Shown: positions 14,831 through 50,052 of the stretch, in pieces | Layout of the letters: each line of letters begins with the position of its first letter | Numbering within the stretch: the first letter of the stretch is position 1 | From: an uncultured Candidatus Saccharibacteria bacterium | GTDB taxonomy: Bacteria > Patescibacteriota > Minisyncoccia > Minisyncoccales > RBG-13-42-11 | Direction of reading: 5' to 3' | DNA length: 50,161 bases | Assembly: GCA_964467045.1 (NCBI GenBank) | Contig: CAYXOH010000001.1 | Location: forward strand, 4,850-55,010 | Program-made: the position numbers and the translations under genes | Notes under the pieces: generated by a model | Seen by the model: only the letters and a program-made list of their open reading frames with translations | Told to the model about the DNA's origin: nothing | Databases searched by the model: none

Positions 14831-15553
14831 TTATTTTTCTTTTTTAACAATGACCACAAATTCTCCTTTTATTTCTCCTGCTGGTATTTTTTTTATCACT
14901 TCCTCAATATTCCCGCGGTAAATCGTTTCAAACTTTTTAGTTAATTCACGACAAACAACAATTCTTAATTCTTTGTTCGCTGAGCGCAAGCGAGGCGGGA
15001 GATGAGGCGTAGCTTCAGCGACCTTAATTCCTAATTCGTTTAAGGTTTTGACTATTCTGTACGGAGATTCATAAAAAACAACCGGAAGTTTTGAATTAGC
15101 TATTTCTTCAAAAAACTTATTTCTTTTCTTTTTAACCGGCGGGAATCCCAAAAATGAAAATTTATCCATCGGAAAACCAGAAACACTGGCTGCCGCAATT
15201 ACAGCCGAGGCTCCGGGTAGGGGCACTACCTTCACCTGATTATTTAGTGACTCAATGACTTTTTCCACTAATTTTCCGCCGGGATCAGAAACTCCAGGAG
15301 TTCCAGCATCAGAAACCAAGGCTAAGTTTTTCCCCTCTTTTAAAATATTAATAATATATTCCACTTTCTTTAACTGGCTGTGTTCGTGATAACTTAAGGT
15401 TGGTTTTTTGATATTATAGTGATCCAGTAATTTTCTTGTTTCCCTGGTATCTTCGCATAAAATTAAATCAACCTCCTTTAAAACTTCTAATGCACGGAGG
15501 CTGACGTCTTTAAGGTTTCCGATTGGTGTAGCAACAATATAAAGCGCACTCAT
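14831..15553 (-). CDS. rsmI: 16S rRNA (cytidine1402-2'-O)-methyltransferase, with a short element-derived insertion
   Basis: 240 aa. LYIVATPIGNLKDVSLRA..LCEDTR signature and RELTKKFE. The extra peptide KVAEATPHLPPRLRSAN is encoded by the repeat at 14975-15023. Confidence 0.9.
   Translation of the reverse strand: MSALYIVATPIGNLKDVSLRALEVLKEVDLILCEDTRETRKLLDHYNIKKPTLSYHEHSQLKKVEYIINILKEGKNLALVSDAGTPGVSDPGGKLVEKVIESLNNQVKVVPLPGASAVIAAASVSGFPMDKFSFLGFPPVKKKRNKFFEEIANSKLPVVFYESPYRIVKTLNELGIKVAEATPHLPPRLRSANKELRIVVCRELTKKFETIYRGNIEEVIKKIPAGEIKGEFVVIVKKEK
14975..15023 (-). repeat. Two-hairpin element copy, in frame and sense inside rsmI
   Basis: The minus strand reads GGTCGCTGAAGCTACGCCTCATCTCCCGCCTCGCTTGCGCTCAGCGAAC. 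It aligns with the copy at 48001-48057. Confidence 0.8.
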
Positions 15554-16611
15554 AAGACCAGGGGTCTTTCTCTTTTTGGGGAAGGAGAAACAGAAGTTTC
15601 GTACTCTTTTCTTTTCTTTAAAAAGTCTCTTAAAAATTCAAATATTACTCCAGCTAAAGGAATAGCTAAAATTGCTCCTAAAATTCCCAAAAGCTTTCCG
15701 CCAATTGCTAAGGCCACCAACACTAAGACAGGCGGCAGGCCAACAAATCTTTTGGTCAAAACCGGAGTAATGATATTGCCTTCTATTTGCTGGATTAAGA
15801 TAAAAGCCACTAAAACAAAGAGAGCTTTCAACCAAGAATCCAAACCAACAAAAATAAAAGCAATAAGTCCGGCGATAATTGGCCCCAGAACAGGGATAAA
15901 ATCAAGGATTCCCGCTAAAATCGCCAAAATTAAAGCATACTTCACCTTAAACAGATAAAGAGTAAGAAATACAGCTAACCCAACAAAAATACAAACTAAA
16001 ACCCGTGAGCCAAACCAGCCAGCTACCTTAGCTCGAGAATTTTCCCAAAGAGATAAAACATATTTCTCATGCTTTTTTGGAGTCAAAAGCCCAATTACTC
16101 TTTCTGTTGCTTTTTCTTCTAAGGAAAGAAAGAGAGCAATGGCTAAAACAAAAATAGTTGAGCCAATTCCTCCGAAGATAACCGCTAAGGCATTTAATAT
16201 ATCAGAGGAGGCTTTTTGAAGGGTTCTCCCAAGAGCTTGGATAAAAGTATCCATACTTTCAAAAGCTTCTATTCCCAAGCCTTTTAATGACGGAGCAATT
16301 TTTTCAAAATACTGTGGGAAAAGCTGAGAAAATTGCTTAATTTCTATAACAAACATCGGAGCTATTGCATAAATAAGCAAAGATAAAATTCCAAATATTC
16401 CGATGTAAACAAAAATAACTGCTAATGCTTTGGGGATACGTAAACGACGAAGAAAATTAATAGCCGGCTCAAATAAAACAGAGATAATTAAAGCAAAAAG
16501 AACCCAAATTAAAATATCTCTGACTAAGAAAATAAGATAGAATCCCAGGAAAGCAAGGGCGATTTTGAAAATTGTTCCCCAGGAAACGTCTAAAACTCTG
16601 TCACCATTCAT
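15550..16611 (-). CDS. AI-2E family transporter (PerM/UPF0118)
   Basis: 353 aa, about 8 TM helices, with the DFIPVLGPIIAG motif typical of the family. 4-nt overlap with rsmI. Confidence 0.8.
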   Translation of the reverse strand: MNGDRVLDVSWGTIFKIALAFLGFYLIFLVRDILIWVLFALIISVLFEPAINFLRRLRIPKALAVIFVYIGIFGILSLLIYAIAPMFVIEIKQFSQLFPQYFEKIAPSLKGLGIEAFESMDTFIQALGRTLQKASSDILNALAVIFGGIGSTIFVLAIALFLSLEEKATERVIGLLTPKKHEKYVLSLWENSRAKVAGWFGSRVLVCIFVGLAVFLTLYLFKVKYALILAILAGILDFIPVLGPIIAGLIAFIFVGLDSWLKALFVLVAFILIQQIEGNIITPVLTKRFVGLPPVLVLVALAIGGKLLGILGAILAIPLAGVIFEFLRDFLKKRKEYETSVSPSPKRERPLVL

Positions 16612-16629
16612 ACGATTTTTTATTTATAA

Positions 16630-16683
16630 GTTCGATGAGATAAATCTCATCTCTCGTCTTAATTTATATTTTATCTCTCGAAC
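16630..16683 (+). repeat. Two-hairpin element copy (intergenic), bounded by an imperfect 11-12 bp inverted repeat
   Basis: GTTCGATGAGATAAATCTCATCTCTCGTC....ATCTCTCGAAC. The first hairpin is GATGAGAT/ATCTCATC. Confidence 0.7.
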
Positions 16684-16719
16684 GTCGAGATGAAATTTTA
16701 ATTTCATTGAGCAAACGAA
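16684..16719 (+). repeat. Short sub-type element (GTCGAGATGAAATT-tta-AATTTCATTGAG)
   Basis: Near-identical architecture to 50012-50052 (GTCGAAATGAAACT-ga-AGTTTCATTGAG). Confidence 0.65.
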
Positions 16720-16748
16720 TTATGGAAAAGAAGGTTTACCTTCTTTGA

Positions 16749-22071: not shown

Positions 22072-25000
22072 TTAAATCTTTTTAATTGCTAACCATAATT
22101 TTTGTTGCTCGACCTTTAATTCTTTTTTTATACCAAAAACTTGTTTTGGTTTTTCTCCTAAAACAAAATTTTTGACTTTTGCTTCTTTGATAATAAATTC
22201 TTTATTTTTTTGGAGGATTTTGTTTAAATTACCTTCTCCAAGAAATCTGACTAAAATTTTATCTTTTGGTTTCAAGTTGGCTTTCTTTCTCATCTCTTGG
22301 ATATTGCGGATTATCTCCCTGACGATGCCTTCTTCTTTAAGTAGCGGAGTTATTTTAGTATCTAATTCTAATTTTTCTTTAAGTTTAGAGTCAAAAACCA
22401 CTTCCTTAATGTTAACTTCTTCAGCAATTAAATTAAGTAAATCATTATCAATTTTTGACTTTTCGCTTTTAATTTTTAATTTTTGAAGCGGTTGTCTAAC
22501 TTTTATTCCGGCCCTTGCCCGCTCGGCCAGTGCTCTGGCAACAATTTCTCTTACCTCTCTCATCTTTTTTTCTAATTTATCATCTTTTATTTTTTTATTT
22601 TCTTCCGGCCAATCTTCTAAATGGCAACTTCTTTTCTTCCCCAGCCCCCGATAGATCACTTCACTTAGGAACGGAATAAAAGGAGCAGTTAGTTTGCTTA
22701 GAGTTAAAAGTGCAAAACTTAAAGTTTCCGAGACCTCTTTTAATTCTTTTTTGCTGGCAGGTTTTTGAAATCTCTTTCTGGAACGCCGGATGTACCATAA
22801 AGAAAGATCTTCAACTACAAAATTCTCAATTGCCCTAGCCGCACCAGTCACATTATACCTATTCAATCTTTGAGTGGCTTCCCGGATAAGATTATCTAGC
22901 CTGGCAATAACCCATTTATCAAGAATATGTTTGGATTTTGGAATTTGGGATTTGGAGTTTGGAATTTCTTTTTTTTGAGCATAGGTTCTTAAAAAAATAT
23001 ATGAGTTCCAGAAAGTCAAGATGAATTTTTTCAGAGCTTGGTCTACTTCTCTTTCAGAAAATAACTTAGCATCTCCCGGCTGGTTTATGGTGTAAAAGTA
23101 CCAGCGAGTGGCATCTGCTCCATATTCTTCAATAATAGAATTCGGTTCAACTACATTGCCTTTGGATTTTGACATCTTATCTCCTTTTTCATCTAAAACA
23201 TGACCCAAAGAGATAGCATTTTTATAAGTCGGCCCTTTCTTTAATAAAGTAGAGATAGCCAAAAGTGTATAAAACCACCCCCGGGTTTGATCAATGGCTT
23301 CAGAAATATAATCTGCCGGGAACTGTTCTTCCTGTAATTTTTGGTTTCCGAAAGGATAATGATATTGAGCAAAAGGCATAGCCCCTGAATCAAACCAGCA
23401 ATCAATCACTTCCGGAGTTCTCTCCATTAAGTTCTGGCATTTGGGACAATAAAATTTAACTTTATCAATGTAAGGACGGTGGAAATCTAATTCCATATTT
23501 TCGTTATACGGCAAATTACTGAACTTTAATTTTCTCAACTCTCCCGTTTTAATATGGGACCTCATTCTTTTTTCTACCATTTGTTTTTGGGAAAGTCCTT
23601 CGTTTGCCCCGGCCAAGGCAGTAATGGGGAATTCATGACTGATAATCAAAACTGTTTTATTCTGATATTTTTTATCGGTATCTTTTAAAAAAGAGTGCAT
23701 TCTTTTTTGTGCATCTGAATAATTTTCTCCTTTTGGTGCTCTAACTTTGAATCTTTTCAGATAATAATCTAATTTTTTAAGTTTTCTTTCCGGATCCCAA
23801 AATCTCCCCGCTATTTTAACTGATTTTCCGTTCAGACCGCCCATATCAAGTTCTCTTAATCTTTTGTCAAATTTCGGTTTAACTCCTGTCTCTCTTTCTA
23901 TAATTTCAGCTGTCTGTCTTGTTCTCAAAAGATCCGAAGAAAAAATTAAATCAATTTTAGCTTTTTTTATTTTTTCAGCCACTTTTGCAATTTGTCTTCT
24001 TCCTCTTTTTGTCAGGGAACATTTGCTTTTTTCTGGCCAGCAAGAAACTAAATTTTTGACATTTCTATCGGACTCCCCGTGTCTCAAAATAAGATATTTA
24101 TTACTGCTGAATTTTTTCAAGAGCAGGTCCTTTTTTGAACCAATAATTTCCACTTGGCCACATTTTTTACATTGCCAAACAGGCAGAGGTGTCCCCCAGT
24201 ATCTTTCCCTAGAAAAAGCCCAATCTTTAATTTCTCTTAACCATTCACCAAATCTCCCCTTTTTTAAATGAGCTGGAATCCAATTAATTTTTTGACTATT
24301 TGCAAGCAAACCTTTTCTGACCTTCTTTACATTTATAAACCAGCTTTGTTTAGCATAATAAAGCAAGGGTGAATTACATCGCCAACAAAAAGGATAATCG
24401 TGACTATAGGGCTCTTTTTTGAAAAGCAGGTTTCTCTTTTTTAAATCTTCAACAATTAAAGGATCAGCCTTTTTAACAAATATTCCTTTCCATGGTTTAA
24501 CTTCCGGAACGAAACAGCCAACTTCATCTACAGTAATAAAAATTGGTAAATTCTTTTCTTTTCCTAATTCCATGTCTTCTTCGCCAAAAGCCGGAGCTAT
24601 ATGAACCAATCCTGTTCCCTCTTCTAAAGAAACAAAGTTGCCAGCAACTATAAACCAAGCTTTTTTATCGGGTTTCATAAATTTATACAAAGGTTCGTAT
24701 TCTAACCCAATTAATTCTTTTCCTTTAATTTCTTCAACAATTTTCCCCTCCACCCCGGAAGCTTTCATTCTTTCCTTGGCTAAAATTAAATAGCAAGCCT
24801 CTTCCCTTGAGGAAGAAGGCGAAGATAAAGATGAGGACGAAGTCTTCATCGCCGATTCATTGTCAGCTTTCACTTTTACATAAGTTAAATTTGGGTTTAC
24901 AGCAACAGCAACATTACCGGGCAATGTCCAGGGAGTGGTCGTCCAAACCAATAAGCTGGTATCTGATTTTAATTTAAATTTTACATATATTGCCGGCTCT

Positions 25001-25587
25001 TCAATTCTTTCGTACCCCAAAGACACTTCATGAGAAGATAAACTCGTTCCACATCTTGGACAATAAGGAACTACTTTGTAATCCTGATAAATGAGGCCCT
25101 TTTTATAAATTTCTTTTAAAATCCACCAAACGCTTTCAATATATTCTGTTTCATATGTAATATAAGGATTTTTTAAATCCAACCAGAAACCGATTCTTTC
25201 GGTTAAACCTTCCCAATCTTTTTTATAATTCCAAACCGATTGTTTGCATAGTTTATTAAACTTAGCTATGCCGTATTTCTCAATATCTTTTTTGCTTTTC
25301 AATCCCAATTTCTTTTCAGTTTCTAATTCAACCGGCAATCCATGGGTATCCCAGCCAGCTTTCCTCAAAACTTTAAATCCCTGCATAGTTTTGTATCTAC
25401 AAATAATATCCTTATAAATTCTGCTTAAAACATGATGGATACCCGGTTTAGCATTAGCGGTTGGAGGTCCTTCAAAAAATACAAAATCCGGCGCCTTTTT
25501 CCGCTGCAAAATGGATTTTTCAAAAACTTGATTGTCTTGCCAAAATTTCAATATTTTCTTTTCGTTTTTGGGAAAATTTATCTCCAT
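22072..25587 (-). CDS. ileS: Isoleucine--tRNA ligase (type 2) carrying an embedded histidine-phosphatase domain and two repeat-derived insertions
   Basis: Start set at MEINFPKNEKKILKFWQ (ATG 25587, 8 nt after the argS stop); the track ORF extends 44 codons into argS. Has the PPTANAKPGIHHVLSR (HIGH-type) motif, the WAFSRERYWGTPLPVW motif and DKMSKSKGN. Confidence 0.93.
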   Translation of the reverse strand: MEINFPKNEKKILKFWQDNQVFEKSILQRKKAPDFVFFEGPPTANAKPGIHHVLSRIYKDIICRYKTMQGFKVLRKAGWDTHGLPVELETEKKLGLKSKKDIEKYGIAKFNKLCKQSVWNYKKDWEGLTERIGFWLDLKNPYITYETEYIESVWWILKEIYKKGLIYQDYKVVPYCPRCGTSLSSHEVSLGYERIEEPAIYVKFKLKSDTSLLVWTTTPWTLPGNVAVAVNPNLTYVKVKADNESAMKTSSSSLSSPSSSREEACYLILAKERMKASGVEGKIVEEIKGKELIGLEYEPLYKFMKPDKKAWFIVAGNFVSLEEGTGLVHIAPAFGEEDMELGKEKNLPIFITVDEVGCFVPEVKPWKGIFVKKADPLIVEDLKKRNLLFKKEPYSHDYPFCWRCNSPLLYYAKQSWFINVKKVRKGLLANSQKINWIPAHLKKGRFGEWLREIKDWAFSRERYWGTPLPVWQCKKCGQVEIIGSKKDLLLKKFSSNKYLILRHGESDRNVKNLVSCWPEKSKCSLTKRGRRQIAKVAEKIKKAKIDLIFSSDLLRTRQTAEIIERETGVKPKFDKRLRELDMGGLNGKSVKIAGRFWDPERKLKKLDYYLKRFKVRAPKGENYSDAQKRMHSFLKDTDKKYQNKTVLIISHEFPITALAGANEGLSQKQMVEKRMRSHIKTGELRKLKFSNLPYNENMELDFHRPYIDKVKFYCPKCQNLMERTPEVIDCWFDSGAMPFAQYHYPFGNQKLQEEQFPADYISEAIDQTRGWFYTLLAISTLLKKGPTYKNAISLGHVLDEKGDKMSKSKGNVVEPNSIIEEYGADATRWYFYTINQPGDAKLFSEREVDQALKKFILTFWNSYIFLRTYAQKKEIPNSKSQIPKSKHILDKWVIARLDNLIREATQRLNRYNVTGAARAIENFVVEDLSLWYIRRSRKRFQKPASKKELKEVSETLSFALLTLSKLTAPFIPFLSEVIYRGLGKKRSCHLEDWPEENKKIKDDKLEKKMREVREIVARALAERARAGIKVRQPLQKLKIKSEKSKIDNDLLNLIAEEVNIKEVVFDSKLKEKLELDTKITPLLKEEGIVREIIRNIQEMRKKANLKPKDKILVRFLGEGNLNKILQKNKEFIIKEAKVKNFVLGEKPKQVFGIKKELKVEQQKLWLAIKKI
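22928..22967 (-). repeat. Heptanucleotide tandem array (coding strand AYYCCAA x ~5.5) inside ileS
   Basis: The plus strand reads GTTTGG ATTTTGG AATTTGG GATTTGG AGTTTGG AATTT and encodes EIPNSKSQIPKSK. A sister array is at 25874-25906. Confidence 0.85.
23500..24102 (-). other. Histidine-phosphatase (PGAM / His_Phos_1-like) domain inserted in IleRS
   Basis: Residues ..YLILRHGESDRN....LTKRGRRQIAKV....IFSSDLLRTRQTAEII....LRELDMGGLNG....PKGENYSD..KRM..FL....VLIISHEFPI. All signature blocks of the family appear in order, between IleRS blocks KCGQVEIIGS and DFHRPYID. Confidence 0.8.
24793..24857 (-). repeat. Two-hairpin element copy, in frame and sense inside ileS
   Basis: The minus strand reads AATCGGCGATGAAGACTTCGTCCTCATCTTTATCTTCGCCTTCTTCCTCAAGGGAAGAGGCTTGC and encodes ESAMKTSSSSLSSPSSSREEAC. 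Confidence 0.8.
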
Positions 25588-25595
25588 AACTTTAT

Positions 25596-27143
25596 TTACA
25601 TTTTCTCTGGGGCAGAAATTCCCATTAATTCTAAAGTGTTCTTTAAGATAATTTTTGTAGCCAAAACCAGAGCTAAACGAGCTTGTGACAAAGACCTGCT
25701 TCCGGTCAGGACTCGACAATCCCTATAGAATTGATGGAAAGCGGTTGCCAGCTCTATTGAATATTGTGGTAATCGCTGAATTTGATAATCCTTGGCAGTG
25801 TCTTCAATAATTTCCGGCAATCTAATCAGTTGTTTAACCAAGTTAAATTCTGAAGGATGAACTAATAATTTTAAGTTTGGATTTTGGGATTTGGAATTTG
25901 GAATTTTTCGCAAGATACTGCAAATCCGGGCGTGGGCATACTGGACATAATAAACAGGACTTTTAGCAGATCTCTCTTTGGCCAAATCCACATCAAACTC
26001 CATCTGGGTATCTAACGATTTCATTAAATAAAAAAATCTTACTGCATCCAATCCCACTTCATTTATTAACCAGTCCAGAGTTATAACTTGCCCCTTCCTT
26101 TTAGAAATCTTTCCCTTTTTTAATCTGACTACCTGAGAAATTAAGATATCTAAATCTCCCTTATACCCCAACATCTTGGCCACTGCTTTTATTTTGCCGA
26201 CATGCCCCTGGTGATCAGCGCCCCAAATATTAATTATTCTATCAAATTTCCTTTCAAACTTATCTTTATGATAGACAATGTCAGAAAGCAAATAAGTTGG
26301 TTCTCCTGTTTCTCTAATTACTACCCAGTCTTTTACGTCACCATATTTTGAAGTTTTTAACCAAACAGCTCTTTCTTTTTTGTAAACTAAGTTTTTATTC
26401 GCCAGCCAATTTCTAATCTTGATTATCTTTCTTTTCTGGTATAAATCATTTTCTTCCGAAATCCATTTATCAAACTTAATTTTCATTTTATTTTCAATAA
26501 AATTTTTGATGTCTTTCTGAATTGATTGAGCTAACAGATATCCAGCCTCTCCTTCATTTTTAGATTTTTTTATTTTATTTTCTATTCTTTTAATTGCTTT
26601 TCTTAAATAATTTGTCAAATAAGTGGTTCCTCTACCCAAAGCAGTTTTTCCTAATTCTTTTATCTGGACACTGTTTTTAGAATCATTAATGTAATATTCA
26701 CGAGTAACCTTATAGCCAGATTTTTCTAAAATATTAGCCAGAGCATCACCAAAAAAAGCTCCCCTGCCGTGTCCTAAATGCAAGAGACCTGTAGGGTTAG
26801 CTGAAATAAATTCAATGTTCACCCTGCACTTTTTTCCGAAAAGTGCAGGGTGAAATTTTCCATAATTCTTTCCCTCCTTCAAAATATCTTTTACCTGTTT
26901 TTGTAAATATTCCCTGGAAAGAAAAAAATTGATAAAACCATTTTTCACTTCTACCTTCTCTAAAATGGGCGATTTTATGTTTTTAGCGATCTCTTGAGGG
27001 TTTTTCTTAAGAACCATCGCTACATTGGTAGCATAATCACCAAAGACTAGATCCACCGGCTCTTCTATTTCAACTTCTATCTTTTTCCCATAAAGACTTC
27101 TAATTGATTTTTCTACTGAATTTTTAATTTCTTCTTTAACCAT
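25596..27143 (-). CDS. argS: Arginine--tRNA ligase
   Basis: 515 aa. SANPTGLLHLGHGRGA (HIGH) and the C-terminal anticodon-binding domain ending ..ISAPEKM. Confidence 0.93.
   Translation of the reverse strand: MVKEEIKNSVEKSIRSLYGKKIEVEIEEPVDLVFGDYATNVAMVLKKNPQEIAKNIKSPILEKVEVKNGFINFFLSREYLQKQVKDILKEGKNYGKFHPALFGKKCRVNIEFISANPTGLLHLGHGRGAFFGDALANILEKSGYKVTREYYINDSKNSVQIKELGKTALGRGTTYLTNYLRKAIKRIENKIKKSKNEGEAGYLLAQSIQKDIKNFIENKMKIKFDKWISEENDLYQKRKIIKIRNWLANKNLVYKKERAVWLKTSKYGDVKDWVVIRETGEPTYLLSDIVYHKDKFERKFDRIINIWGADHQGHVGKIKAVAKMLGYKGDLDILISQVVRLKKGKISKRKGQVITLDWLINEVGLDAVRFFYLMKSLDTQMEFDVDLAKERSAKSPVYYVQYAHARICSILRKIPNSKSQNPNLKLLVHPSEFNLVKQLIRLPEIIEDTAKDYQIQRLPQYSIELATAFHQFYRDCRVLTGSRSLSQARLALVLATKIILKNTLELMGISAPEKM
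25874..25906 (-). repeat. Heptanucleotide tandem array (AYYCCAA x ~4.5) inside argS
   Basis: The plus strand reads AGTTTGG ATTTTGG GATTTGG AATTTGG AATTT and encodes KIPNSKSQNPNLK. It has the same frame and nearly the same sequence as the ileS array. Confidence 0.85.
26818..26854. repeat. Perfect 16-bp-stem hairpin inside argS coding sequence
   Basis: TTCACCCTGCACTTTT-ttccg-AAAAGTGCAGGGTGAA. It encodes KFHPALFGKKCRVN just before the HIGH region. Confidence 0.9.
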
Positions 27144-27783: not shown

Positions 27784-28132
27784 GGGGGTGAAAGGTTTAG
27801 ACAGGAATTTCAGTCAAAATAGGCAGATAGAGCTACTGGAATCTCTTAAAACTTCCAGTAAAACAAATAAGTGTCAACTTATTTAAGAAACCTGCTTTAG
27901 CTTACGTTTAAAGCAGCATCCGATTTATTGATTCTCGCTAGGTAAAAACCGGGTGTCATATTCAGCGAGATAAGATAGTTCTTTTGTCTCGAAAACTATC
28001 TAAAAGATAGAGACGAGTGGTACCAGAATTTTTGTCTGTTTTTTATCTGGTATTTCAAAAATCAAAACAGAATAAATCTGTAGAGATATTTTGACTAAAT
28101 TTTTGGACGGGAGTTCGCCCTCCCCACCTCCA
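27784..28132 (+). ncRNA. ssrA: tmRNA (transfer-messenger RNA)
   Basis: 5' GGGGGTGAAAGGTTTAGACAGG and 3' GGACGGGAGTTCGCCCTCCCCACCTCCA form the tRNA-Ala-like domain (acceptor GGGGGTG/CACCTCC with G3:U70; T stem GGGAG/CTCCC). It lies directly after smpB. An internal frame ..AAG AAA CCT GCT TTA GCT TAC GTT TAA (..KKPALAYV*, stop 27909-27911) lies in an 8-bp helix like a tag ORF; the resume codon is not assigned. CCA is not encoded (the sequence reads ACA). Confidence 0.85.
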
Positions 28133-28142
28133 CAAAAATCTG

Positions 28143-28650: not shown

Positions 28651-28851
28651 ATGAGTAAGTTAAAAACCAGAAAATCATTTACCAAACGTTTCAAAATTAC
28701 TAAAACTGGAAAAATATTGAGAAGGGCTACCGGTCTTAACCATTATCGGGCAAAAAAATCCGGTCAAAAAATAAGACAAAGTAGAAAATGGGTTAAAGTT
28801 TCCAGAAGTGAAGCTAAAAAAATAAAGAAATTACTGCCACATCGTCGATGA
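28651..28851 (+). CDS. rpmI: 50S ribosomal protein L35
   Basis: 66 aa. MSKLKTRKSFTKRFKITKTGKILRR.. is typical L35. The stop TGA lies inside the first repeat unit. Confidence 0.93.
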   Translation: MSKLKTRKSFTKRFKITKTGKILRRATGLNHYRAKKSGQKIRQSRKWVKVSRSEAKKIKKLLPHRR

Positions 28852-29009
28852 ATTTAAAGATTCATCTTCATCTGCGCCCACTACGTGGGCTTGATAACAG
28901 TCGATGAATTTAAAGATTCATCTTCATCTGCGCCCACTACGTGGGCTTGATAACAGTCGATGAATTTAAAGATTCATCTTCATCTGCGCCCACTACGTGG
29001 GCTTGATAC
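28845..29009 (+). repeat. Three direct tandem units (56, 56, 53 nt) of the two-hairpin element filling the rpmI-rplT spacer
   Basis: The unit is TCGATGAATTTAAAGATTCATCTTCATCTGCGCCCACTACGTGGGCTTGATAACAG, starting at 28845, 28901 and 28957. The hairpins are GATGAAT/ATTCATC and GCCCAC-tac-GTGGGC. Confidence 0.92.
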
Positions 29010-33658: not shown

Positions 33659-33660
33659 AT

Positions 33661-38920: not shown

Positions 38921-39943
38921 ATGGTTGAGATAGATGGGATATATTTAGAGGGCGGCGGACAGATTTTGCGGACGGCTATTGCCTTAGCGGTAGTTACCAA
39001 GAAACCCTGCCGGGTTTTTAATATTCGTAAAGGACGCCCTAAGTCAGGTCTGGTCCAACAGCATCTTTTAGGAATTCAAGCCTTAGCTCAACTTTGTGAA
39101 GGAAAATTAGAAGGGGATTATTTGGGCTCAGAAGAAATTAAATTTTTTCCTGGAGAAAAATACAGGGACCGGGTCTCTGTAAATATTCCAACGGCCGGCA
39201 GCCTGACATTGGTTTTACAAGCTTTAATTCCCCCATCTCTCTCAGTTCCCTCTCCGACAACTATAATTTTCAACGGCGGAGCTACTGATACTTTTTTCTC
39301 ACCAACCATTGATTACTTTCGTTTCGTTTTTCTAAAAATCTTAGGGAAAATGGCTGCTAAAATAGAAATAAATATTCTGAAAAGAGGATATTATCCGGAA
39401 GGCGGAGCTCAGCTAGAATTGATAATTTGTCCAGCCAAATTAAAAAATCTAAATCTGACCGATAGAGGACTATTCAAAAGTATTGCTGCGATTTCTGGTG
39501 CTTCGGAAATTTTAAAAGACAAAAAAGTTGCCGAAAGACAATTGGCGGGAGTAAGAGAAGTTTTGGGTAAATTAAACTTGCCCATTGAAGAAAAGATAGA
39601 ATATTATCAAACTAAAAATTCCGGAAGCCAGGTTTTTTTAATGGCCGAATTTGAAAATACAATAATCGGTACTGACAATCTTGGAAAATTGGGAAAAAGA
39701 GCAGAAGATGTCGGCAAAGAAGCAGCCCTGGGACTGTTAAAAGAACAGAAATCCGAAGCTTGTTTAGATAAATATTTAGCTGACCAGATTCTCCCCTATT
39801 TAGCTCTGGCTGACGGTAAAAGTCAGGTCGCTGTTTCTGAAATTACTAATCATTGCAAAACTAACATTTGGGTTATTGAGAAATTTCTTGAGGGAAAATT
39901 TGAAACTAAAGGAAATTTAATTAAATGGTTTCCAAGTCGATGA
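38921..39943 (+). CDS. rtcA: RNA 3'-terminal phosphate cyclase
   Basis: Start set at MVEIDGIYLEGGGQILRTAIALA (ATG 38921); the 46 upstream codons of the track ORF are not conserved-looking. The stop TGA lies in the repeat at 39936. Confidence 0.88.
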   Translation: MVEIDGIYLEGGGQILRTAIALAVVTKKPCRVFNIRKGRPKSGLVQQHLLGIQALAQLCEGKLEGDYLGSEEIKFFPGEKYRDRVSVNIPTAGSLTLVLQALIPPSLSVPSPTTIIFNGGATDTFFSPTIDYFRFVFLKILGKMAAKIEINILKRGYYPEGGAQLELIICPAKLKNLNLTDRGLFKSIAAISGASEILKDKKVAERQLAGVREVLGKLNLPIEEKIEYYQTKNSGSQVFLMAEFENTIIGTDNLGKLGKRAEDVGKEAALGLLKEQKSEACLDKYLADQILPYLALADGKSQVAVSEITNHCKTNIWVIEKFLEGKFETKGNLIKWFPSR

Positions 39944-39987
39944 AAAATTTTTCATCTTCACCTTCATCCGCCGGAGGCGAACTCGGT
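39936..39987 (+). repeat. Two-hairpin element copy filling the rtcA-ispH spacer
   Basis: GTCGATGAAAAATTTTTCATCTTCACCTTCATCCGCCGGAGGCGAACTCGGTAA. The hairpins are GATGAAAAA/TTTTTCATC and CGCC-gga-GGCG. Confidence 0.85.
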
Positions 39988-39989
39988 AA

Positions 39990-40832
39990 ATGAAAATTAT
40001 TATTGCTAAAAATATTGGTTTCTGTTCCGGGGTCAAAAGAGCAATATCAGTTACAGAACAAGCTTTAAAAGAAAAGACAAAACCCGTTCAGTTTCTGGGC
40101 AGCTTAGTTCATAACGAAAATATTATTGATAAGTTTTTAAAGAGAGGAGTAATTTTAAAAAAGAACTTGAAAGAAATAAAACCCGGCATTTTAATCATCC
40201 AGGCCCACGGTTTTTCTCCTTTCCCCAAAAAATTTGATGAAAAAATCCTTATCAGAGATGCTACTTGTCCCCTGGTAAAAAAAGTCCAAATGCTGGCTAA
40301 CTCCCTCTGGAAAAATAGCTATCAGGTAATTATCATCGGAGATAAGAATCATTCTGAAACTAAGGGGATTAAAGGATATACTAAAAACAAGGCTGTGATT
40401 GTAGAAAATAAAGAACAGGCAAAAAATCTTCCTAAATTTAAAAGGGTGGCTGTGGTAACTCAAACAACTCAAAATTTAAATAATGTAAATGAAATTTTAA
40501 AAGTTTTAAAAAGAAGGCATAAGAAAATAAAATATTTTAATACTCTTTGTTTGGAAGTCCAGAAGCGCCAAAAAGAAACAAGAGTAATTGCAGAAAAAAC
40601 TGACGGAATGCTGGTCATAGGCTCTAAAACTTCTGCTAATACCAAAGGGTTATATCAAATTTCAAAAAATTCCGGAAAACCGGTTTGGTGGGTAAACTCA
40701 TTGGACGAATTAAAAAAACAAAATATTAAAGACGCTATAGTTTTAGGAGTAGTTTCTGGAACATCTGCTGATAATGCAGAAGTTGAAAAAATTAAGAATT
40801 ATTTAAAAAGGGCTCGGCAGGCAAATGGCTAA
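39990..40832 (+). CDS. ispH: 4-hydroxy-3-methylbut-2-enyl diphosphate reductase
   Basis: 280 aa. MKIIIAKNIGFCSGVKRAI.. with conserved Cys positions (CSG, ATCPLV, NTLC). Confidence 0.92.
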   Translation: MKIIIAKNIGFCSGVKRAISVTEQALKEKTKPVQFLGSLVHNENIIDKFLKRGVILKKNLKEIKPGILIIQAHGFSPFPKKFDEKILIRDATCPLVKKVQMLANSLWKNSYQVIIIGDKNHSETKGIKGYTKNKAVIVENKEQAKNLPKFKRVAVVTQTTQNLNNVNEILKVLKRRHKKIKYFNTLCLEVQKRQKETRVIAEKTDGMLVIGSKTSANTKGLYQISKNSGKPVWWVNSLDELKKQNIKDAIVLGVVSGTSADNAEVEKIKNYLKRARQANG

Positions 40833-42879: not shown

Positions 42880-43245
42880 TTAACAAGTTAAATGAAAAAG
42901 GCCAACAACCTTATTCTCCTCGCCCTCTTCTTCTTCCGAATCTTCATTAATAATATTGAAGGTTTTAGTTGCTTCTTCTGTCCTGTCAATAATTAATTTT
43001 ATCCCTCGTTCTTTAATAAATCTTTCAGCTTGTTCTGTTACTTTGGCCAATCCTGAAACACCGGTTCCTAAAATAATGGTATCCGGATTTTGCTCTGTTG
43101 CTCTTTTAATGTCATCAACATCAAAAACATGGCTTTCTTCCCGCCACCATTCTAAAACTTCACCAGTCCAACGAACCTCAACGTCATACTTATAGGTTTT
43201 TCCATCAATAGTAATTGAGCCAAATTTATATTCTTCTATCATCAA
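42880..43245 (-). CDS. Mth938-like (DUF498) domain protein
   Basis: 121 aa. ..IILGTG.....V......F..RGI.. and the C-terminal ..LFHLTC fit the family. An acidic stretch EDSEEEEGEEN precedes the C-terminus. Confidence 0.65.
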   Translation of the reverse strand: MMIEEYKFGSITIDGKTYKYDVEVRWTGEVLEWWREESHVFDVDDIKRATEQNPDTIILGTGVSGLAKVTEQAERFIKERGIKLIIDRTEEATKTFNIINEDSEEEEGEENKVVGLFHLTC

Positions 43246-44552
43246 AATAAAGTTTCTTGTCTTATTAGTTCTTTTTGCTCTTCTTTCGAAAAAATTCTTA
43301 TCTTGCCATAGACCCCGTCGTATCCTGCTTCTTTGACGACTTTCCCCTCCCTTACTCTCATTATCCCCTCGGCAATTTCAGGTAAAGTTATTTTTTCTAA
43401 ATTTTCCTTGGTAGTATCTAAAAGAATATTAAACTCTGAGTTAAAATTTTCAATTAAATTTTTATATTCTTTCTCTACTTGTTTTGTGCCAGTATTATGT
43501 CCTAAAGCATCGGCAATAATTTCTTCTAAGGGAACCAAATTTTTAAAAGGTATTCTTTTCTCCGGAAGGTAGCCCTCTTCTCTGTCGGCTAACTGCTCTA
43601 CCCTGTTTAAAACACCAACAGTTAGGGGTTTGCCGCAAACCGGACAAATTCCGTTATATTTTTTTGTTTCTTGCGGCGATAACTTGATTTCACAGCTTCG
43701 ATGACCGTCATAATGGTATTTTCCTTCCTCGGGATAAAATTCAATTGTATATAAAAATTTCTGAGGATCTTTATCTTTTATTGCCTGAGTAATAGCAGCA
43801 TAACTTATTTCTGTGTTAAAAACATTGGCTTCTCTGCCTATTTTTGACGGCGAATGGCTATCACTGTTTGAGATTAAAGTAACCTTATCCAATGCTGATA
43901 ACCGCCAATTCATAGCTGGATCAGAAGAAAGGCCCGTCTCGATAGAATATATGTATTTTGAGTAGTCCTCAAAACACTCTTCTATAGAATCAAAGCCAGA
44001 TTTTGACCCAAAGATAGCAAACCAAGGAGTCCAAGCATGAGCGGGAATAATTAAACAATCCTGGGAAATACTTAAAACAATTTTAGTTAATTCTTTAGCG
44101 TCTAATCCTAAAATTGGCCGGCCATCAGATTTTAGATTGCCAACCCAGCCTAATTGAACATTAATTTTCTCTACTACTTCAAAGGAGGGTGCAAAAACTA
44201 TTATATGAATTTTCCTAACCTTGCCTTTGGACAAAGAGGATAAATCCTCTTTTTTACCCTTTGCTATCGCTTGGGTTTTAGAATAAACACAGCTAATTTC
44301 AGTGGTTAGAAGAAAACGTATCTCTGAATTTGAACTTTTTAACCTAAATAAACCCGGTTCGGCTGGTTCTAATTTTTGTTTTAAATTATTAAACCATTCG
44401 GGATGCGTAAAATCACCTGTTCCTAAAACTTTAATCCCCTTTATTCTCGCCCACTTATCAAGATTCTCTAAATCCATTTGAGGAGAAGTCGCCCGAGAAT
44501 ATTTTGAATGTAAATGAAAATCTGCTATAAATTGCATGGTCTCAGAAAGCAA
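43242..44552 (-). CDS. Endonuclease Q (PHP-domain, TIGR00375 family)
   Basis: 436 aa. FIADFHLHSKYSRATS.., GTGDFTHPEW and a C-x2-C Zn segment (CPVCGKPLTVGV). Confidence 0.8.
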   Translation of the reverse strand: MLSETMQFIADFHLHSKYSRATSPQMDLENLDKWARIKGIKVLGTGDFTHPEWFNNLKQKLEPAEPGLFRLKSSNSEIRFLLTTEISCVYSKTQAIAKGKKEDLSSLSKGKVRKIHIIVFAPSFEVVEKINVQLGWVGNLKSDGRPILGLDAKELTKIVLSISQDCLIIPAHAWTPWFAIFGSKSGFDSIEECFEDYSKYIYSIETGLSSDPAMNWRLSALDKVTLISNSDSHSPSKIGREANVFNTEISYAAITQAIKDKDPQKFLYTIEFYPEEGKYHYDGHRSCEIKLSPQETKKYNGICPVCGKPLTVGVLNRVEQLADREEGYLPEKRIPFKNLVPLEEIIADALGHNTGTKQVEKEYKNLIENFNSEFNILLDTTKENLEKITLPEIAEGIMRVREGKVVKEAGYDGVYGKIRIFSKEEQKELIRQETLF

Positions 44553-46467: not shown

Positions 46468-47181
46468 TTATTTCTCAGCCACCAGATAAATATTACTTTC
46501 CTTTGTTTTGGTTTTTTTTAGGATTCCAATTTTTTTAATTTTAAGGCCTGCTTTTTGGATTATTTTTCTCAATCCACTAGCCGTAAAACAATGAATATAT
46601 CTTAGAGTAATATCCTGCCATAAAACAAAAAAATCACCAAAATCTAATTTTGCTTTTCCAAAAATCTTCAGGAGTTGATATTTAAAGAAGGCTTTAACTC
46701 TCTTGTATTCACCTATTAAAATCATTCGAAAAGGATTCAGGTTCCAAACGGTTAAAATAAGAACGCCTCCGGGTTTTAAAATCCTCCTTGTTTCTTTTAA
46801 TAATTGGAGCTGAAGTTCTTCGGAAGGAAGATGATGGATAACAGCAAAGCTAAAAACTTTATCAAAGGAATTTTCAGGAAAAGGTAAGCTTAAAGCATCA
46901 GCAATCCTAAGGTCAACTTTGGGATATTTTTTTCTGGCGATCTCAATCATCTTTTCAGAATTATCCACTCCCACATATTCAATCTTTTTCTGAAAAACTT
47001 CAGAAAATCTTCCATTACCGCAACCCAAATCTAAAACTTTGTCACCTGGGGTGATATACTGTAAAAGTAGACTCTTTTGTTCCTCTGGAATATATTCTCT
47101 AGTCTTTGAAAAATCTTCAGCAATCTGGTTATAATCTTTCCGAGTTTTTTCTAATAAATATTTTGCGTATTCTTTATCCAT
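46468..47181 (-). CDS. Class I SAM-dependent methyltransferase, Trm9/ALKBH8-MT-like
   Basis: Start set at MDKEYAKYLLEKT (ATG 47181). IAEDFSKTR, VLDLGCGNGRF and FSFAVIHHLPSEE...LLKETRRILKPGG.LILTVWN match my memory of the Trm9 signature blocks (AVIHH, L.PGG, VW). Confidence 0.75.
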   Translation of the reverse strand: MDKEYAKYLLEKTRKDYNQIAEDFSKTREYIPEEQKSLLLQYITPGDKVLDLGCGNGRFSEVFQKKIEYVGVDNSEKMIEIARKKYPKVDLRIADALSLPFPENSFDKVFSFAVIHHLPSEELQLQLLKETRRILKPGGVLILTVWNLNPFRMILIGEYKRVKAFFKYQLLKIFGKAKLDFGDFFVLWQDITLRYIHCFTASGLRKIIQKAGLKIKKIGILKKTKTKESNIYLVAEK

Positions 47182-48781
47182 GGATGTCCAAAAAATCATT
47201 ATCCAAGAATTAATCAAAACCAAAGCAAAGACTTTGGAGGATTTAGCTAAGGTTAAAAGATGGGCGGCTAAAAAATATAAAACCCCTTGCTCCAGTAATA
47301 TTATTCTACTAAAAACTTACCACGAATTAGTCAAAAATAAAAAGGTAAAAAAATCCTCCATTATTGAAACCTTACTCAGAACCAGACCTATCCGTTCTCT
47401 TTCCGGCATTGTTAATATTTCAGTCTTAACTAAACCTTATCCTTGTCCTGGTAAATGTTTATATTGCCCCCTGGAAAAAGGCATTCCTAAAAGTTATTTA
47501 TCAGGAGAACCTGCAGTAGAAAGGGCTAAAAAACTAAATTACAATCCCTATTTACAAGTTGAAAAGAGAATTGAAATGCTGGAAGCTACAGGCCACCCCA
47601 CAGATAAAATTGAATTAAGAATTGTTGGTGGAACTTGGTCCTGTTACCCAAAAGATTACCAGAGTCAATTTATAAAGAAATGTTTTGATGCTTGTGATAA
47701 GAAGATTGGTAAAACTCTGAAGGAATCTCAAAGATTGAATGAAAAAGCAAAACACAGAATAATTGGTTTATCAATTGAAACAAGGCCAGATTTTATTAAT
47801 CCAACCGAAATCAAAAGGTTAAGGAATTTTGGCGTAACCATGGTAGAGTTGGGAGTTCAATCTATTTATGATGATGTTTTGAAATTAAATTTAAGAGGCC
47901 ACGGAGTCAAAAGAACAATTGTAGCCACAAAACTTTTAAAAGATACCGGTTTCAAAATCCTTTACCAAATGATGCCAAACCTTCCGGGTTCTAATTTAAA
48001 GGTCGCTGAGACAAAGTCTCATCTTCCGCCTCGCGCTACTTTGCAGCGCTCAGCAAGAGATGAAAAAATGTTTGAAGAATTATTTTCCAATCCTAATTTT
48101 CAGCCAGATTTATTAAAGATTTATCCTTGCGCCTTAGTAAAAGAAGCTCCTTTATATAAATGGTGGAAACAAGGAAAATACAAACCTTATACAGAAAAAC
48201 AATTAATAAGCTTAATAAAATCTATTAAACAGAAAATTCCTTATTATGTAAGAATTCAAAGAATAAGTAGAGATATTCCTTCCCCGGCCATTGTTGCAGG
48301 GGGTGCCAAAGTTTCTAACTTGCGTCAGATTCTACTTGGGAATATGAAAAGAGAGGGTTGGCAATGTAAATGTATCAGATGCAGAGAAGTAAAAGAAAAT
48401 TACGATCGGAAGGAAAAGGTTTACCTCTTTAGAATAAATTACATAGCTTCTGATGGAAAAGAAATATTCCTAAGTTTTGAAAATAAAAACAGAACAAAGA
48501 TTTTCAGTCTGCTCCGTCTTCGCATCACCTCTCAAAAAACAGCCATCATCAGAGAACTCCACACTTACGGCCAGCTCCAGCCAATAGCAGAGAAAGTTTC
48601 TGTTATTTCTCCTCAACACAAAGGATTAGGTAAAAGACTAATGAAAGAAGCAGAAAAAATAACCAAAAAAGAATTTGGTTTGAATAAAATTGCCGTAATT
48701 TCCGGCGTCGGAGCAAGAAATTATTATCGTAAACTAGGCTACAAACTAAAAAACACTTATATGACGAAAGTCCCTCTTTAA
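47180..48781 (+). CDS. elp3: Elp3-type radical-SAM / GNAT tRNA uridine(34) carboxymethyl-modification enzyme, with an element-derived insertion
   Basis: 533 aa. Radical-SAM cluster CPGKCLYCP, MPNLPGS, LKIYPC and C-terminal GNAT QHKGLGKRLMKEAE. The extra peptide LKVAETKSHLPPRATLQRSAR is encoded by the repeat. Confidence 0.9.
   Translation: MDVQKIIIQELIKTKAKTLEDLAKVKRWAAKKYKTPCSSNIILLKTYHELVKNKKVKKSSIIETLLRTRPIRSLSGIVNISVLTKPYPCPGKCLYCPLEKGIPKSYLSGEPAVERAKKLNYNPYLQVEKRIEMLEATGHPTDKIELRIVGGTWSCYPKDYQSQFIKKCFDACDKKIGKTLKESQRLNEKAKHRIIGLSIETRPDFINPTEIKRLRNFGVTMVELGVQSIYDDVLKLNLRGHGVKRTIVATKLLKDTGFKILYQMMPNLPGSNLKVAETKSHLPPRATLQRSARDEKMFEELFSNPNFQPDLLKIYPCALVKEAPLYKWWKQGKYKPYTEKQLISLIKSIKQKIPYYVRIQRISRDIPSPAIVAGGAKVSNLRQILLGNMKREGWQCKCIRCREVKENYDRKEKVYLFRINYIASDGKEIFLSFENKNRTKIFSLLRLRITSQKTAIIRELHTYGQLQPIAEKVSVISPQHKGLGKRLMKEAEKITKKEFGLNKIAVISGVGARNYYRKLGYKLKNTYMTKVPL
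48001..48057 (+). repeat. Two-hairpin element copy, in frame and sense inside elp3
   Basis: GGTCGCTGAGACAAAGTCTCATCTTCCGCCTCGCGCTACTTTGCAGCGCTCAGCAAG, with terminal inverted repeat GCTGAG/CTCAGC. Confidence 0.85.
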
Positions 48782-48794
48782 GATTTTCTTAATT

Positions 48795-49988
48795 TTAGAA
48801 AATCTCAGGCCGATAGCCGTCTAGACAGCGCAACCTTTTTTGAGCCTTAACTTTCTCTGAAATAGAAATGTTGCTTTTTTGAATTCCTTTTTCTAAAATT
48901 TCCAAAGTTTTATCATAGGTTTCTCTATCAACAGGAAAAGGAGTGCCGTCTTTCCCTCCAACGGAAAAAGTGTAACGAGCCGGGTCTTGATAAGAGGGTT
49001 TTGCTCCGTAAATTATTTCTGAAACCAAAGAAAGGGCTCTGATTGTCCTCGGACCTATACCCTTCAATGAAAGAAATTGTTCAAAGTTTTTTGGCTCTTC
49101 GGCCCGGGCTCCTGAAATTGTTTTCTCTAACCTTTTCAAATCAAATTTTTCTTCGACAACAGGATGCCAGTAGAATTCTTTGTCGTATAATTTCATTGTT
49201 GTCAGATTTTTTGATTTTTTAACGCGATGAAGTTTTCCGCTCTCGGGTTTGCCTTCATCTTTACTTTCGCTCGGCTTCGCCTCGCTTAGTGTTTGAATTA
49301 AATTTAAATCTTTTAAGAATTGCTTTGGCTCTTCTTTAACTAAACCGAGAGAAATTTCTCTGTTATTGTTGCTTTTTTTTGCGGTTAAATTAAGAGGTTT
49401 TGCCCTAGCTCCGGATATAATGCCTGAATGAGGTTCCTCGATAAAATCTTTAGCAGCGGAAGATAGCCAATGATAACGGCGAGCGGTCTGATTTTGCGTA
49501 TTCATTCCCTGCTGAACAACTACCCAGTTACCCGATTTAGTAAATAAAAAATTATGCTGATAAATCTGGTATTTATCCTGAATAAGAGCAGAATCAACTT
49601 TAGCGGCCATTTTTGAAGCGTAAATTAATTTCGAGGCGAAAGGAAATTGCCTAGAAATTCCGTAAGCAGTAATTTCTTCCGGGGTTTTTCTTGATTCTCT
49701 TTTGCCACCGCAAACATAAACTCCTAACTGGTCTTGTATTTCAAAAAGTCCGGCTTTCAGTGCCCCCAGGGTTGTCACCGTCAGGCCCGAGGAATTCCAA
49801 TCAAAACCCATAACACACCCCAAGCTCTGGAACCAAACCGGATCTGACAATCTCTTTAAAAATTCTTCCGGACCGAATTCTTCAACAATTGCCAGAGCAA
49901 CACCTCGGCCAAGCCTTTTCATTCTTTCAAAAAGCCATCTCGGACACCGCCCATAATCAAGAGGTACTGTAGCAATTCCTGTTCTCAT
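48795..49988 (-). CDS. DUF763 domain protein (HhH-containing), with an element-derived insertion
   Basis: 397 aa. ..PLDYGRCPRWLFERM.., LSDPVWFQSLGCVMGFDWNSSGLT and LKGIGPRTIRAL (HhH). The family call is from memory. Confidence 0.75.
   Translation of the reverse strand: MRTGIATVPLDYGRCPRWLFERMKRLGRGVALAIVEEFGPEEFLKRLSDPVWFQSLGCVMGFDWNSSGLTVTTLGALKAGLFEIQDQLGVYVCGGKRESRKTPEEITAYGISRQFPFASKLIYASKMAAKVDSALIQDKYQIYQHNFLFTKSGNWVVVQQGMNTQNQTARRYHWLSSAAKDFIEEPHSGIISGARAKPLNLTAKKSNNNREISLGLVKEEPKQFLKDLNLIQTLSEAKPSESKDEGKPESGKLHRVKKSKNLTTMKLYDKEFYWHPVVEEKFDLKRLEKTISGARAEEPKNFEQFLSLKGIGPRTIRALSLVSEIIYGAKPSYQDPARYTFSVGGKDGTPFPVDRETYDKTLEILEKGIQKSNISISEKVKAQKRLRCLDGYRPEIF
49223..49286 (+). repeat. Two-hairpin element copy inside the DUF763 gene, antisense to the gene, frame preserved
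   Basis: CGCGATGAAG-(20 nt)-CTTCATCTTTACTTTCGCTCGGCTTCGCCTCGCT. It encodes (antisense) LSEAKPSESKDEGKPESGKLHR. Confidence 0.75.
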
Positions 49989-50011
49989 ATACTGAGCTTT
50001 TATTTATAAAA

Positions 50012-50052
50012 GCGACAGTCGAAATGAAACTGAAGTTTCATTGAGTGTCGTC
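50012..50052 (+). repeat. Short sub-type element (GTCGAAATGAAACT-ga-AGTTTCATTGAG) flanked by GCGACA/TGTCGTC
   Basis: Same architecture as 16684-16719. Confidence 0.65.

Follow-up and report, generated by a model that had tools for sequence, protein, structure and literature searches.

The window analysed here is a 50,161-nucleotide (nt) stretch of contig CAYXOH010000001.1 (positions 4,850 to 55,010; assembly GCA_964467045.1) from an uncultured Candidatus Saccharibacteria bacterium placed by GTDB in the Patescibacteriota. It has a G+C content of 32-40% and is densely filled with housekeeping genes, together with a transfer-messenger RNA (tmRNA) gene and a tRNA-Arg gene. Inside these genes and at the junctions between them lie hairpin-forming repeats of 45-70 nt, which we call units and which are probably a family of mobile DNA. 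A covariance model trained on 30 copies from the window and related genomes detected 14 units at 11 loci. Twelve had been listed in the original prediction, which was made from the sequence alone, and these scored 31-64 bits; two extra units scored 39.9 and 17.9 bits. An nhmmer search with a profile built on the window copies returned exactly the 12 listed units and no other significant match in the window, and all main-type copies were found at their predicted positions by Tandem Repeats Finder (TRF), a degenerate pattern, nhmmer and the covariance model. The pattern, G[AC]TGA-N4-32-TCATCT, occurred 13 times in the window, against 0.95 expected from 100 dinucleotide shuffles of it (shuffle maximum 4), and 87 covariance-model matches, which form our alignment set, were obtained from 290 kb of related DNA. 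The repeat family and its excess over shuffled DNA are thereby confirmed. Relatives are labelled L001 and so on, each label denoting a fetched contig with orthologous or related DNA.

From 5' to 3', a unit consists of RGKCG, hairpin 1, TYC, the 5' strand of a helix termed P3, TTCGC, an optional hairpin 2, GCTYG and the 3' strand of P3, and it terminates at the P3 3' foot. Hairpin 1 has the base GATGA/TCATC, with an inner stem and loop that are free in sequence. Helix P3 comprises 3-4 base pairs, mostly ACC/GGT, and encloses TTCGC and GCTYG, and hairpin 2 is GC-rich and freely variable. The original prediction had recognised hairpin 1, but the 3' half, which it described as a CGCC/TCGC-rich segment with a second small hairpin, is the covarying helix P3 around the optional hairpin. 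Sub-families were also observed: one of the form GGTCGCTGAG..CTCAGC with a closing helix, a short one without hairpin 2, and one with a nested module inside hairpin 1; terminal complementarity (6-bp closing) was confined to the GGTCGCTGAG..CTCAGC sub-family.

The three helices covary. Over the 87 copies, 92.9% of pair cells held standard pairs compared with 72.7% in column shuffles, and double-change cells numbered 283 compared with 80, these counts being made on an alignment fitted to the model, which biases them toward pairing. No shuffle reached the observed values, and every slid register gave far lower ones. Even the conserved base of hairpin 1 covaries (GATGA/TCATC, GAAGA/TCTTC, AAAGA/TCTTT and AATGA/TCATT), and P3 alternates among ACC/GGT, ATC/GAT, CCC/GGG, CGC/GCG, AAC/GTT and ACG/CGT. 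The family is thus defined by structure more than by sequence. A reading of GATGA as part of a hammerhead (CUGAUGA), a kink-turn or a C/D box was rejected, since GATGA forms Watson-Crick pairs with TCATC and covaries with it.

Strong covariation of every helix is also what would be seen if the units were primarily RNAs whose function depends on their fold, for example regulators between cistrons, stabilisers of mRNA or devices of translational coupling, which selection maintains at gene junctions, with the in-gene copies as by-products. However, in the 87-copy alignment G.T pairs numbered 17 and A.C pairs 39, and given this lack of a G.T excess nothing points to a structure that the sense strand forms only as RNA. 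Furthermore, the units matched no Rfam family: cmscan of the window (E <=1) reported only tmRNA, tRNA-Arg and two unrelated sub-threshold matches. The tmRNA gene (139 bits), located at 27784-28135 directly 3' of smpB, was found by Rfam and missed by ARAGORN.

Six units lie inside genes, three of them in the sense orientation. The rsmI gene (14831-15553) contains a single unit of about 48 nt at 14976-15023 on the minus strand, belonging to the GGTCGCTGA..CTCAGC sub-family (34.4 bits; nhmmer E 8.5e-7). The ileS gene (22072-25719) holds a single 63-nt unit at 24792-24854 on the minus strand (40.4 bits), and elp3 (47180-48781) a single 54-nt unit of the GGTCGCTGA sub-family at 48001-48054 on the plus strand (55.9 bits). 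The other three are antisense to their genes and lie on the plus strand: a 48-nt unit of the short type without hairpin 2 in ogt (31156-31512; unit 31255-31302, 31.3 bits), a 48-nt insert in a PHP-domain, MJ0043_C-like gene (43242-44552), whose unit at 44229-44278 is of a degenerate short type with a CAAAGA..TCTTT hairpin (17.9 bits), and a single 69-nt unit in the DUF763 gene (48795-49988; unit 49222-49290, 39.8 bits). In the DUF763 unit, hairpin 1 is lengthened by a nested GTTT.CC..GGGTTTGCC module, and the same extended hairpin occurs in L085 and L049. The inserts in rsmI, ileS, ogt, elp3 and DUF763 had all been predicted; the sixth host gene had been overlooked, together with its unit.

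All six in-gene units are free of stop codons and have lengths that are multiples of three, in both orientations, and their translations bear out the claim that the reading frame is kept. For random lengths, six multiples of three would arise by chance with a probability of (1/3)^6, or about 0.001, whereas the junction units described below are 53 or 56 nt long. The lengths are therefore a signature of selection on translated inserts. We considered whether the units could be archaeal-type mRNA introns, of the kind that RtcB, Archease and RtcA (encoded nearby) would help to remove; this was rejected, as the six in-gene units are stop-free multiples of three and the junction units are not. The peptides that they encode are loop-like, with a high content of S, P, E and K.

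For five of the six in-gene units, that is all but rsmI, empty orthologous sites were found in close relatives. First, the ileS insert encodes SAMKTSSSSLSSPSSSREEAC, with SAMKTSSSS as part of the IleRS segment, and the orthologous site is empty, with a gap of exactly 0, in L134, L132, L145, L139, L130 and L147; at the base level its junctions show an ambiguity of at most 1 nt and no duplication. Second, the ogt insert sits directly after the PCHR active-site motif, and residues 69-87 of Ogt have no match in solved homologues, leaving a gap of about 17 residues. L133/L134 and L135 share this insert, and six of eight relatives (L128/L129, L131/L132, L136, L138, L141 and L130) lack it, their empty sites reading CC|RTCTGA. 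Gaps from flank projection had seemed to place it in L128/L129 and L131/L132 as well, which proved false when base-level alignment showed empty sites there. Third, the PHP-domain protein carries a 16-residue insert, TQAIAKGKKEDLSSLS, relative to its 85%-identical orthologue in L009, and the DNA alignment agrees. Fourth, the DUF763 protein has a 23-residue insert relative to the orthologues in L005 and L008, both of which are empty. In rsmI the unit encodes KVAEATPHLPPRLRSA and corresponds to a 14-residue gap relative to solved RsmI structures. As a separate observation, an exact-sequence look-up placed the 397-residue DUF763 protein in a cluster with NrdR fragments of 39-55 residues, apparently a clustering glitch in that collection.

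Finally, the elp3 unit encodes VAETKSHLPPRATLQRSA, within an insert-region peptide KVAETKSHLPPR, and appears as an 18-residue gap relative to archaeal Elp3 structures. The insert was present in 4 of 120 homologues and missing from the other 116, including a 91%-identical one, and the filled site occurs in three separate clades, each with empty sisters. Its junction is exact and without duplication, and compensatory changes keep the hairpins while the amino acids change. In an AlphaFold model of Elp3 with a mean predicted local distance difference test score (pLDDT) of 76, the insert is modelled as a coil (residues 270-291, pLDDT <50) between a strand and a helix. The elp3 gene of L003 (515 residues) had looked like an insert-free allele, which proved false, its DNA being identical with another start-codon call. 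The 91%-identical relative, in L009, has another short-type unit elsewhere in elp3 (L009 6482-6531), encoding GEENKFSSSPFANAWQ between GWQ and CKC, and the window insert is absent there.

Loop-like peptides rich in S, P, E and K, and an Elp3 segment modelled as disordered coil, are also what would be expected if the in-gene segments were native lineage-specific linkers whose DNA likeness reflects convergent low complexity. The data already contradict it: one and the same nucleotide architecture is found in spacers as well as genes, on both strands and in three frames, orthologues of 85-91% identity lack the segments, and compensatory changes preserve the hairpins at the cost of the amino acids. 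We consider it to have next to no chance of being right. The original claim that the insert residues are lineage-specific was upheld for Elp3, IleRS, Ogt, DUF763 and the PHP protein, all of which have orthologues that lack them.

Two further features of the synthetase genes were observed. IleRS (1215 residues; window 22072-25719, minus strand) has a complete His_Phos_1 domain (residues 543-715) inserted in the middle of its catalytic domain, and tblastn located the same insertion in L128, L147, L134, L141, L136, L139/L145 and L130; since it is common to the relatives, it is a clade feature. In addition, a 38-nt repeat of TTTGGAA-like heptamers lies in frame in two synthetase genes, at 22930-22967 and 25869-25906 (87% identical). 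It encodes EIPNSKSQIPKSK in IleRS and KIPNSKSQNPNLK in ArgRS, similar AATCCAAA runs occur in the IleRS of L128, L134 and L136, and it may represent a second kind of intragenic repeat.

Units also occupy the junctions of co-directional genes, as had been claimed, and this holds for rpmI/rplT, MFS/polX and rtcA/lytB. The rpmI-rplT spacer is wholly filled by an array of three identical 56-nt tandem units on the plus strand (28844-29008; 50-55 bits each), which TRF reported as 2.9 copies at 100% identity, in agreement with the predicted 56-nt tandem unit. Two tandem 56-nt units, 80% identical and recovered by repeat search, lie on the minus strand between the MFS stop and the polX start (33660-33771; 64 and 46 bits), and a single 53-nt unit on the plus strand lies between rtcA and lytB (39935-39987; 58.8 bits). 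At rpmI/rplT and rtcA/lytB, the upstream stop codon is the TGA of hairpin 1 (in the first unit), and the downstream ATG begins 2 nt past the last unit. The start codons of polX and DUF763 are placed likewise. Directly upstream of DUF763, the minus strand carries a complete CAATGA..TCATT-variant unit (49988-50046; 39.9 bits), with 2 nt between its end and the start codon of that gene; its hairpin 2 type (GCTTTTATAAATAAAAGC) also occurs in L082, L084 and L049. The original prediction had taken 50012-50052 on the plus strand for a short sub-type, but what lies there is hairpin 1 of this minus-strand unit. Nor is 16684-16719 a sub-type of its own: 16630-16719 on the plus strand, between two minus-strand genes, is one composite of about 90 nt (nhmmer E 2e-4; fold z -3.0), in which a unit with an AT-rich 3' half (16630-16683) is followed by a CAATGA..TCATT-type hairpin (16684-16719), and the whole has a counterpart of about 88% identity in a contig that is unrelated (L049 7585-7700).

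Two observations were made at related loci. The RtcB of L006 (6484-9468) contains an intein, and that of L005 (7232-9378) is intein-less and stands beside a free-standing LAGLIDADG open reading frame (ORF). The called start of the L005 RtcB is an ATG within the GATGA of a unit, and Archease and DUF763 are encoded nearby.

Relatives without junction units keep the same gene order. At rplT, L128/L129 have no unit, L131/L132 one orthologous unit, L001/L002 two and the window three; L001 and L002 are near-identical contigs from other assemblies of the same strain, and the array length may be polymorphic or assembly-collapsed. The polX junction units are absent from the 88%-identical contig L158, and the rtcA/lytB unit is absent from L136 and reduced in L128/L129 to AGTCGATGA.

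Exact stop-to-start placement, with the TGA of hairpin 1 ending the upstream frame and an ATG 2 nt past the 3' end, is seen in many copies and is a reason to consider a functional RNA again. Between co-directional genes, sense copies outnumber antisense ones by 22 to 9 (p 0.03), and in ORFs by 19 to 11 (p 0.2). The antisense strand, GAAGGTGAAGATGA, resembles by its sequence a Shine-Dalgarno motif followed by ATG, and hairpin 2 has a 3' arm that is G-rich 8-12 nt ahead of the downstream ATG. On the other side, 31-39 of the 87 copies (the range depends on the ORF criteria) lie within long ORFs, in both orientations, junction copies are missing from the nearest relatives with the same gene order, 0 to 3 units occur at a single junction, and variants with GAAGA or AAAGA at the hairpin base have neither the TGA nor the ATG. 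We therefore regard a functional RNA as an unlikely explanation of the family.

The choice of insertion site was then examined in 83 copies. TGA was found at +4 to +6 of the 3' flank in 26 of them (background 0.016 per position; binomial p 1.5e-26) and at +5 to +7 in 13 more, and the same pattern was seen in about 13 of 28 intragenic copies. The bases adjoining the two unit ends are only weakly biased, and the conserved TGA lies 3 nt (sometimes 4-6 nt) past the 3' end. In alleles without a unit, TGA stands at +4 to about +6 for ogt, DUF763, rtcA/lytB and the PHP gene and at +7 for elp3, and the ileS site has no such TGA. Since the TGA is already in the empty alleles, it is a property of the target and not a part of the unit; the preferred insertion point is 3 nt upstream of a host TGA. 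No target-site duplication of at least 2 nt was found at the exact elp3, ileS and ogt junctions. Two apparent duplications were also rejected: that of TA, as the T of the 3' TA pairs and covaries in P3, and that of ATGA, as RGKCG precedes the first ATGA and is missing from the empty ileS and ogt sites.

Two sites showed how units spread and disappear. At ogt, the insert is common to relatives with an 80%-identical PolX and missing from those at 82-90%. The unit and about 40 nt of flank are 95-97% identical to L135/L134, while the surrounding DNA is nearest to the insert-less L129. This mismatch indicates short-tract recombination, and at this one site the insert has passed between related genomes by short-tract homologous recombination. 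Around the elp3 insert, no recombination tract was visible beyond about 15-25 nt. At rtcA/lytB, L129, a 93%-identical relative, reads CCAAGTCGATGAGAATT at 3257-3263 (orthologous to window 39935-39990), which is the first 9 nt of the unit with the rest missing, and the second codon of lytB is altered beside the leftover AGTCGATGA. This leftover and the changed codon are as expected from a deletion running from the ATGA of hairpin 1 to the start-codon ATGA, and at this one site the unit has been lost by deletion between these two ATGA sequences. The patchy presence of the units is partly explained by the recombination at ogt and the deletion footprint at rtcA/lytB.

It could be argued from such events that no dedicated enzyme exists, and that an old relic has been spread by host processes only, with hairpin slippage producing the arrays, and natural transformation with short-tract recombination carrying filled alleles from one related cell to another. 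The short tract at ogt, the filling of one elp3 site in three separate clades, the 0-3 tandem units at one site, the divergence of the dispersed copies and the lack of any transposase found would all agree with this. However, homologous recombination cannot bring a single 50-nt structure into dozens of genes and spacers that are unrelated to one another, close relatives have sites specific to one lineage (for instance the window and L009 within elp3), and the strong preference for TGA-adjacent sites points to a specific insertion step. We find this explanation improbable, with about one chance in ten left to it.

Beyond the window, the nearest Elp3 relatives are annotated as Candidatus Nealsonbacteria or Nealsoniibacteriota, and the host of the window itself is assigned to Candidatus Nealsonbacteria, bacteria with very small genomes. 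A degenerate pattern scan was made with one genome per species, and its results refer to the matches listed. Among these, the profile-supported matches were all on low-GC contigs, and their hosts were Candidatus Nealsonbacteria, including the complete 639-kb CP179888.1, a Parcubacteria bacterium, several metagenome-assembled genomes named uncultured Candidatus Saccharibacteria and a few others. Matches in high-GC Actinobacteria, which were most of those listed, had no profile support and were rejected as chance, and seven pattern matches in viral contigs included no convincing unit. The host genes in relatives encode UvrA, TopA (two units), GpsA, UppP, Sua5, a GlmU-like enzyme, a glycosyltransferase, an oxidoreductase subunit and a solute-binding protein. 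The UvrA genes of two different Nealsonbacteria-like genomes, L054 (4773-7892) and L050 (1-2442), contain four units each, partly in the same loop; among them are tandem in-frame arrays of GDEAKxSSSPSPxRAGS repeats, which differ in unit number at that loop. DNA around polX orthologues, fetched irrespective of the element, had 20 matches in 419 kb compared with 14 in the 50 kb of the window, so the window genome is comparatively rich in units.

The window is part of a metagenome-assembled contig, and at rplT a further two assemblies from this strain give an array of two units, which might suggest that the units are an artefact of assembly or binning. In contrast, the copies in elp3, in DUF763 and at rplT recur base for base in independent Joint Genome Institute (JGI) assemblies, and orthologous copies exist in unrelated projects and in one genome recorded as complete. 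An artefact is therefore scarcely credible.

As a side observation outside the family, a 92-nt direct repeat (82% identity) was found at 3989-4080 and 4690-4781, upstream of the small neighbouring ORFs 3476-3934 and 4126-4629.

Taken together, filled and empty orthologous pairs were obtained for ileS, ogt, elp3, DUF763, the PHP gene, rpmI/rplT, MFS/polX and rtcA/lytB. Close relatives differ in whether an orthologous site is occupied by a unit, and the units also form tandem arrays. We suggest, with a probability of roughly three in four, that they are a non-autonomous family of mobile DNA defined by structure. A trans-acting enzyme would recognise the folded single strand or a cruciform through the conserved feet and internal loop, with the hairpin tips left free, and would copy or move the unit by a duplication-free route; routes of this type are known from elements of the IS200/IS605-REP/RAYT, IS91, IS110 and IS607 kinds. 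Copies that break a frame would then be purged by selection.

Several points weigh against this proposal. First, neither a transposase nor an autonomous parent whose ends match the units was found: a tblastn search that used IS200 TnpA and the RAYT of E. coli as queries gave nothing at E <0.05 in a 779-kb sample of low-GC genomes (other enzyme families were not searched), and no insertion sequence (IS) with unit-like ends was seen in these 779 kb, where no systematic search was made. Second, the dispersed copies in the window are not near-identical, identical units being tandem only, and recent transposition in this genome is thus not demonstrated. Third, hairpins 1 and 2 are unlike each other, and 3 nt separate the TGA from the 3' end, so that it abuts neither end; both features depart from the IS200/IS605 pattern. 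Fourth, the covariation carries the bias of its fitted alignment. Finally, the moderate sense bias allows for a role in RNA or translation, which is a minority reading; the bias would fit either selection or an insertion preference linked to replication. In the clade, candidate enzymes do exist, since the published genome of Candidatus Nealsonbacteria DGGOD1a is reported to contain 39 transposases.

We also consider, tentatively and with more doubt than confidence, that the element may have evolved for low harm, by inserting 3 nt before a host TGA with its own TGA (positions 7-9) in phase with it. If so, stops in ORFs would always be out of frame and the unit would be translated as a loop, and at a real TGA stop or ATGA overlap it would give the upstream gene a new stop and leave the downstream ATG intact, where the G-rich hairpin arm could act as a ribosome-binding site. 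The family would then be a mobile module that routinely makes new protein loops and intercistronic spacers in essential genes of the streamlined candidate phyla radiation (CPR) genomes, and its mover might be a structure-specific enzyme that is as yet undescribed.

The genomes of CPR/Patescibacteria are considered streamlined. In this 50-kb stretch, about 1.6% would be selfish hairpin DNA, some of it inside IleRS, RsmI, Elp3 and Ogt, and in relatives the hosts include UvrA and TopA. Public metagenomes offer many allele pairs, filled and empty, which makes site choice, loss and the origin of new protein segments directly testable. In practice, the units make proteins look more divergent than they are, displace the gene starts that are called and may be collapsed by assembly.

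Our full-text searches found no published description of such elements in Patescibacteria, Parcubacteria or Nealsonbacteria, in line with the original prediction, which knew of none; the journal coverage was partial, and this is absence of evidence. The units were compared with known systems. REP (repetitive extragenic palindromic) sequences are extragenic, form one hairpin or an inverted pair, and are mobilised by RAYT (the REP-associated tyrosine transposase), and IS200/IS605 ends have two similar hairpins abutting a fixed target of 4-5 nt. Like REP/REPIN and IS200/IS605-derived elements, the units are short GC-rich hairpins with conserved 5' bases and no target-site duplication, and their tandem junction, GGT|AGGCG, contains GTAG. 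Recognition of a folded single strand in the style of these systems would explain both the covariation and the conserved foot. However, REP/REPIN-RAYT elements are strictly extragenic, whereas about 40% of our copies are intragenic. The units resemble IS200/IS605-derived elements in having a hairpin or helix 4 nt from the 5' end and another ending at the 3' end, but their hairpins are dissimilar (the IS608 ends are similar) and no fixed 4-5 nt target abuts an end. The preference for insertion sites agrees with neither IS200/IS605 nor REP.

[quoted passage not shown] In classical MITEs, terminal inverted repeats and target-site duplications occur and a parent IS can be recognised, whereas the units show no duplication at the three exact junctions, and no parent IS was seen in the 779-kb sample. 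In behaviour, the likeness to intragenic ERIC/RU units and other small mobile sequences is looser than that to the Rickettsia elements discussed below, and the family belongs to none of these. The palindromic amphipathic repeat coding elements (PARCELs) of Mollicutes and other microbes are likewise translated palindromic repeats of minimal genomes with a horizontally patchy distribution (PMC2996958). They are repeat-protein modules in surface proteins, unlike the dispersed inserts in enzymes and spacers seen here.

The closest comparison is with the Rickettsia palindromic elements, dispersed elements of about 100-150 bp that lie in frame in housekeeping genes of Alphaproteobacteria (PMC10969869). 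The original prediction had likened the in-frame colonisation of protein genes to theirs, and the likeness withstood both tests that it had named against itself, as the copies exceed the shuffled expectation and orthologues lack the residues. Both systems belong to reduced genomes, add peptides through in-frame inserts, have copies in spacers and have no known transposase, and frequent in-frame insertion in unrelated genes, the trait of the Rickettsia elements, was found here in six genes of the window and among the intragenic copies of the alignment. In contrast, our units measure 45-70 nt, reside in Patescibacteria, have an architecture of their own (hairpin 1, P3 and an optional hairpin 2), form tandem arrays even in ORFs and prefer a TGA-adjacent site. 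The family behaves like the Rickettsia palindromic elements and is not a member of them, being set apart by size, host, architecture and the lack of duplication, and it represents a second, independent case of Rickettsia-style in-frame colonisation.

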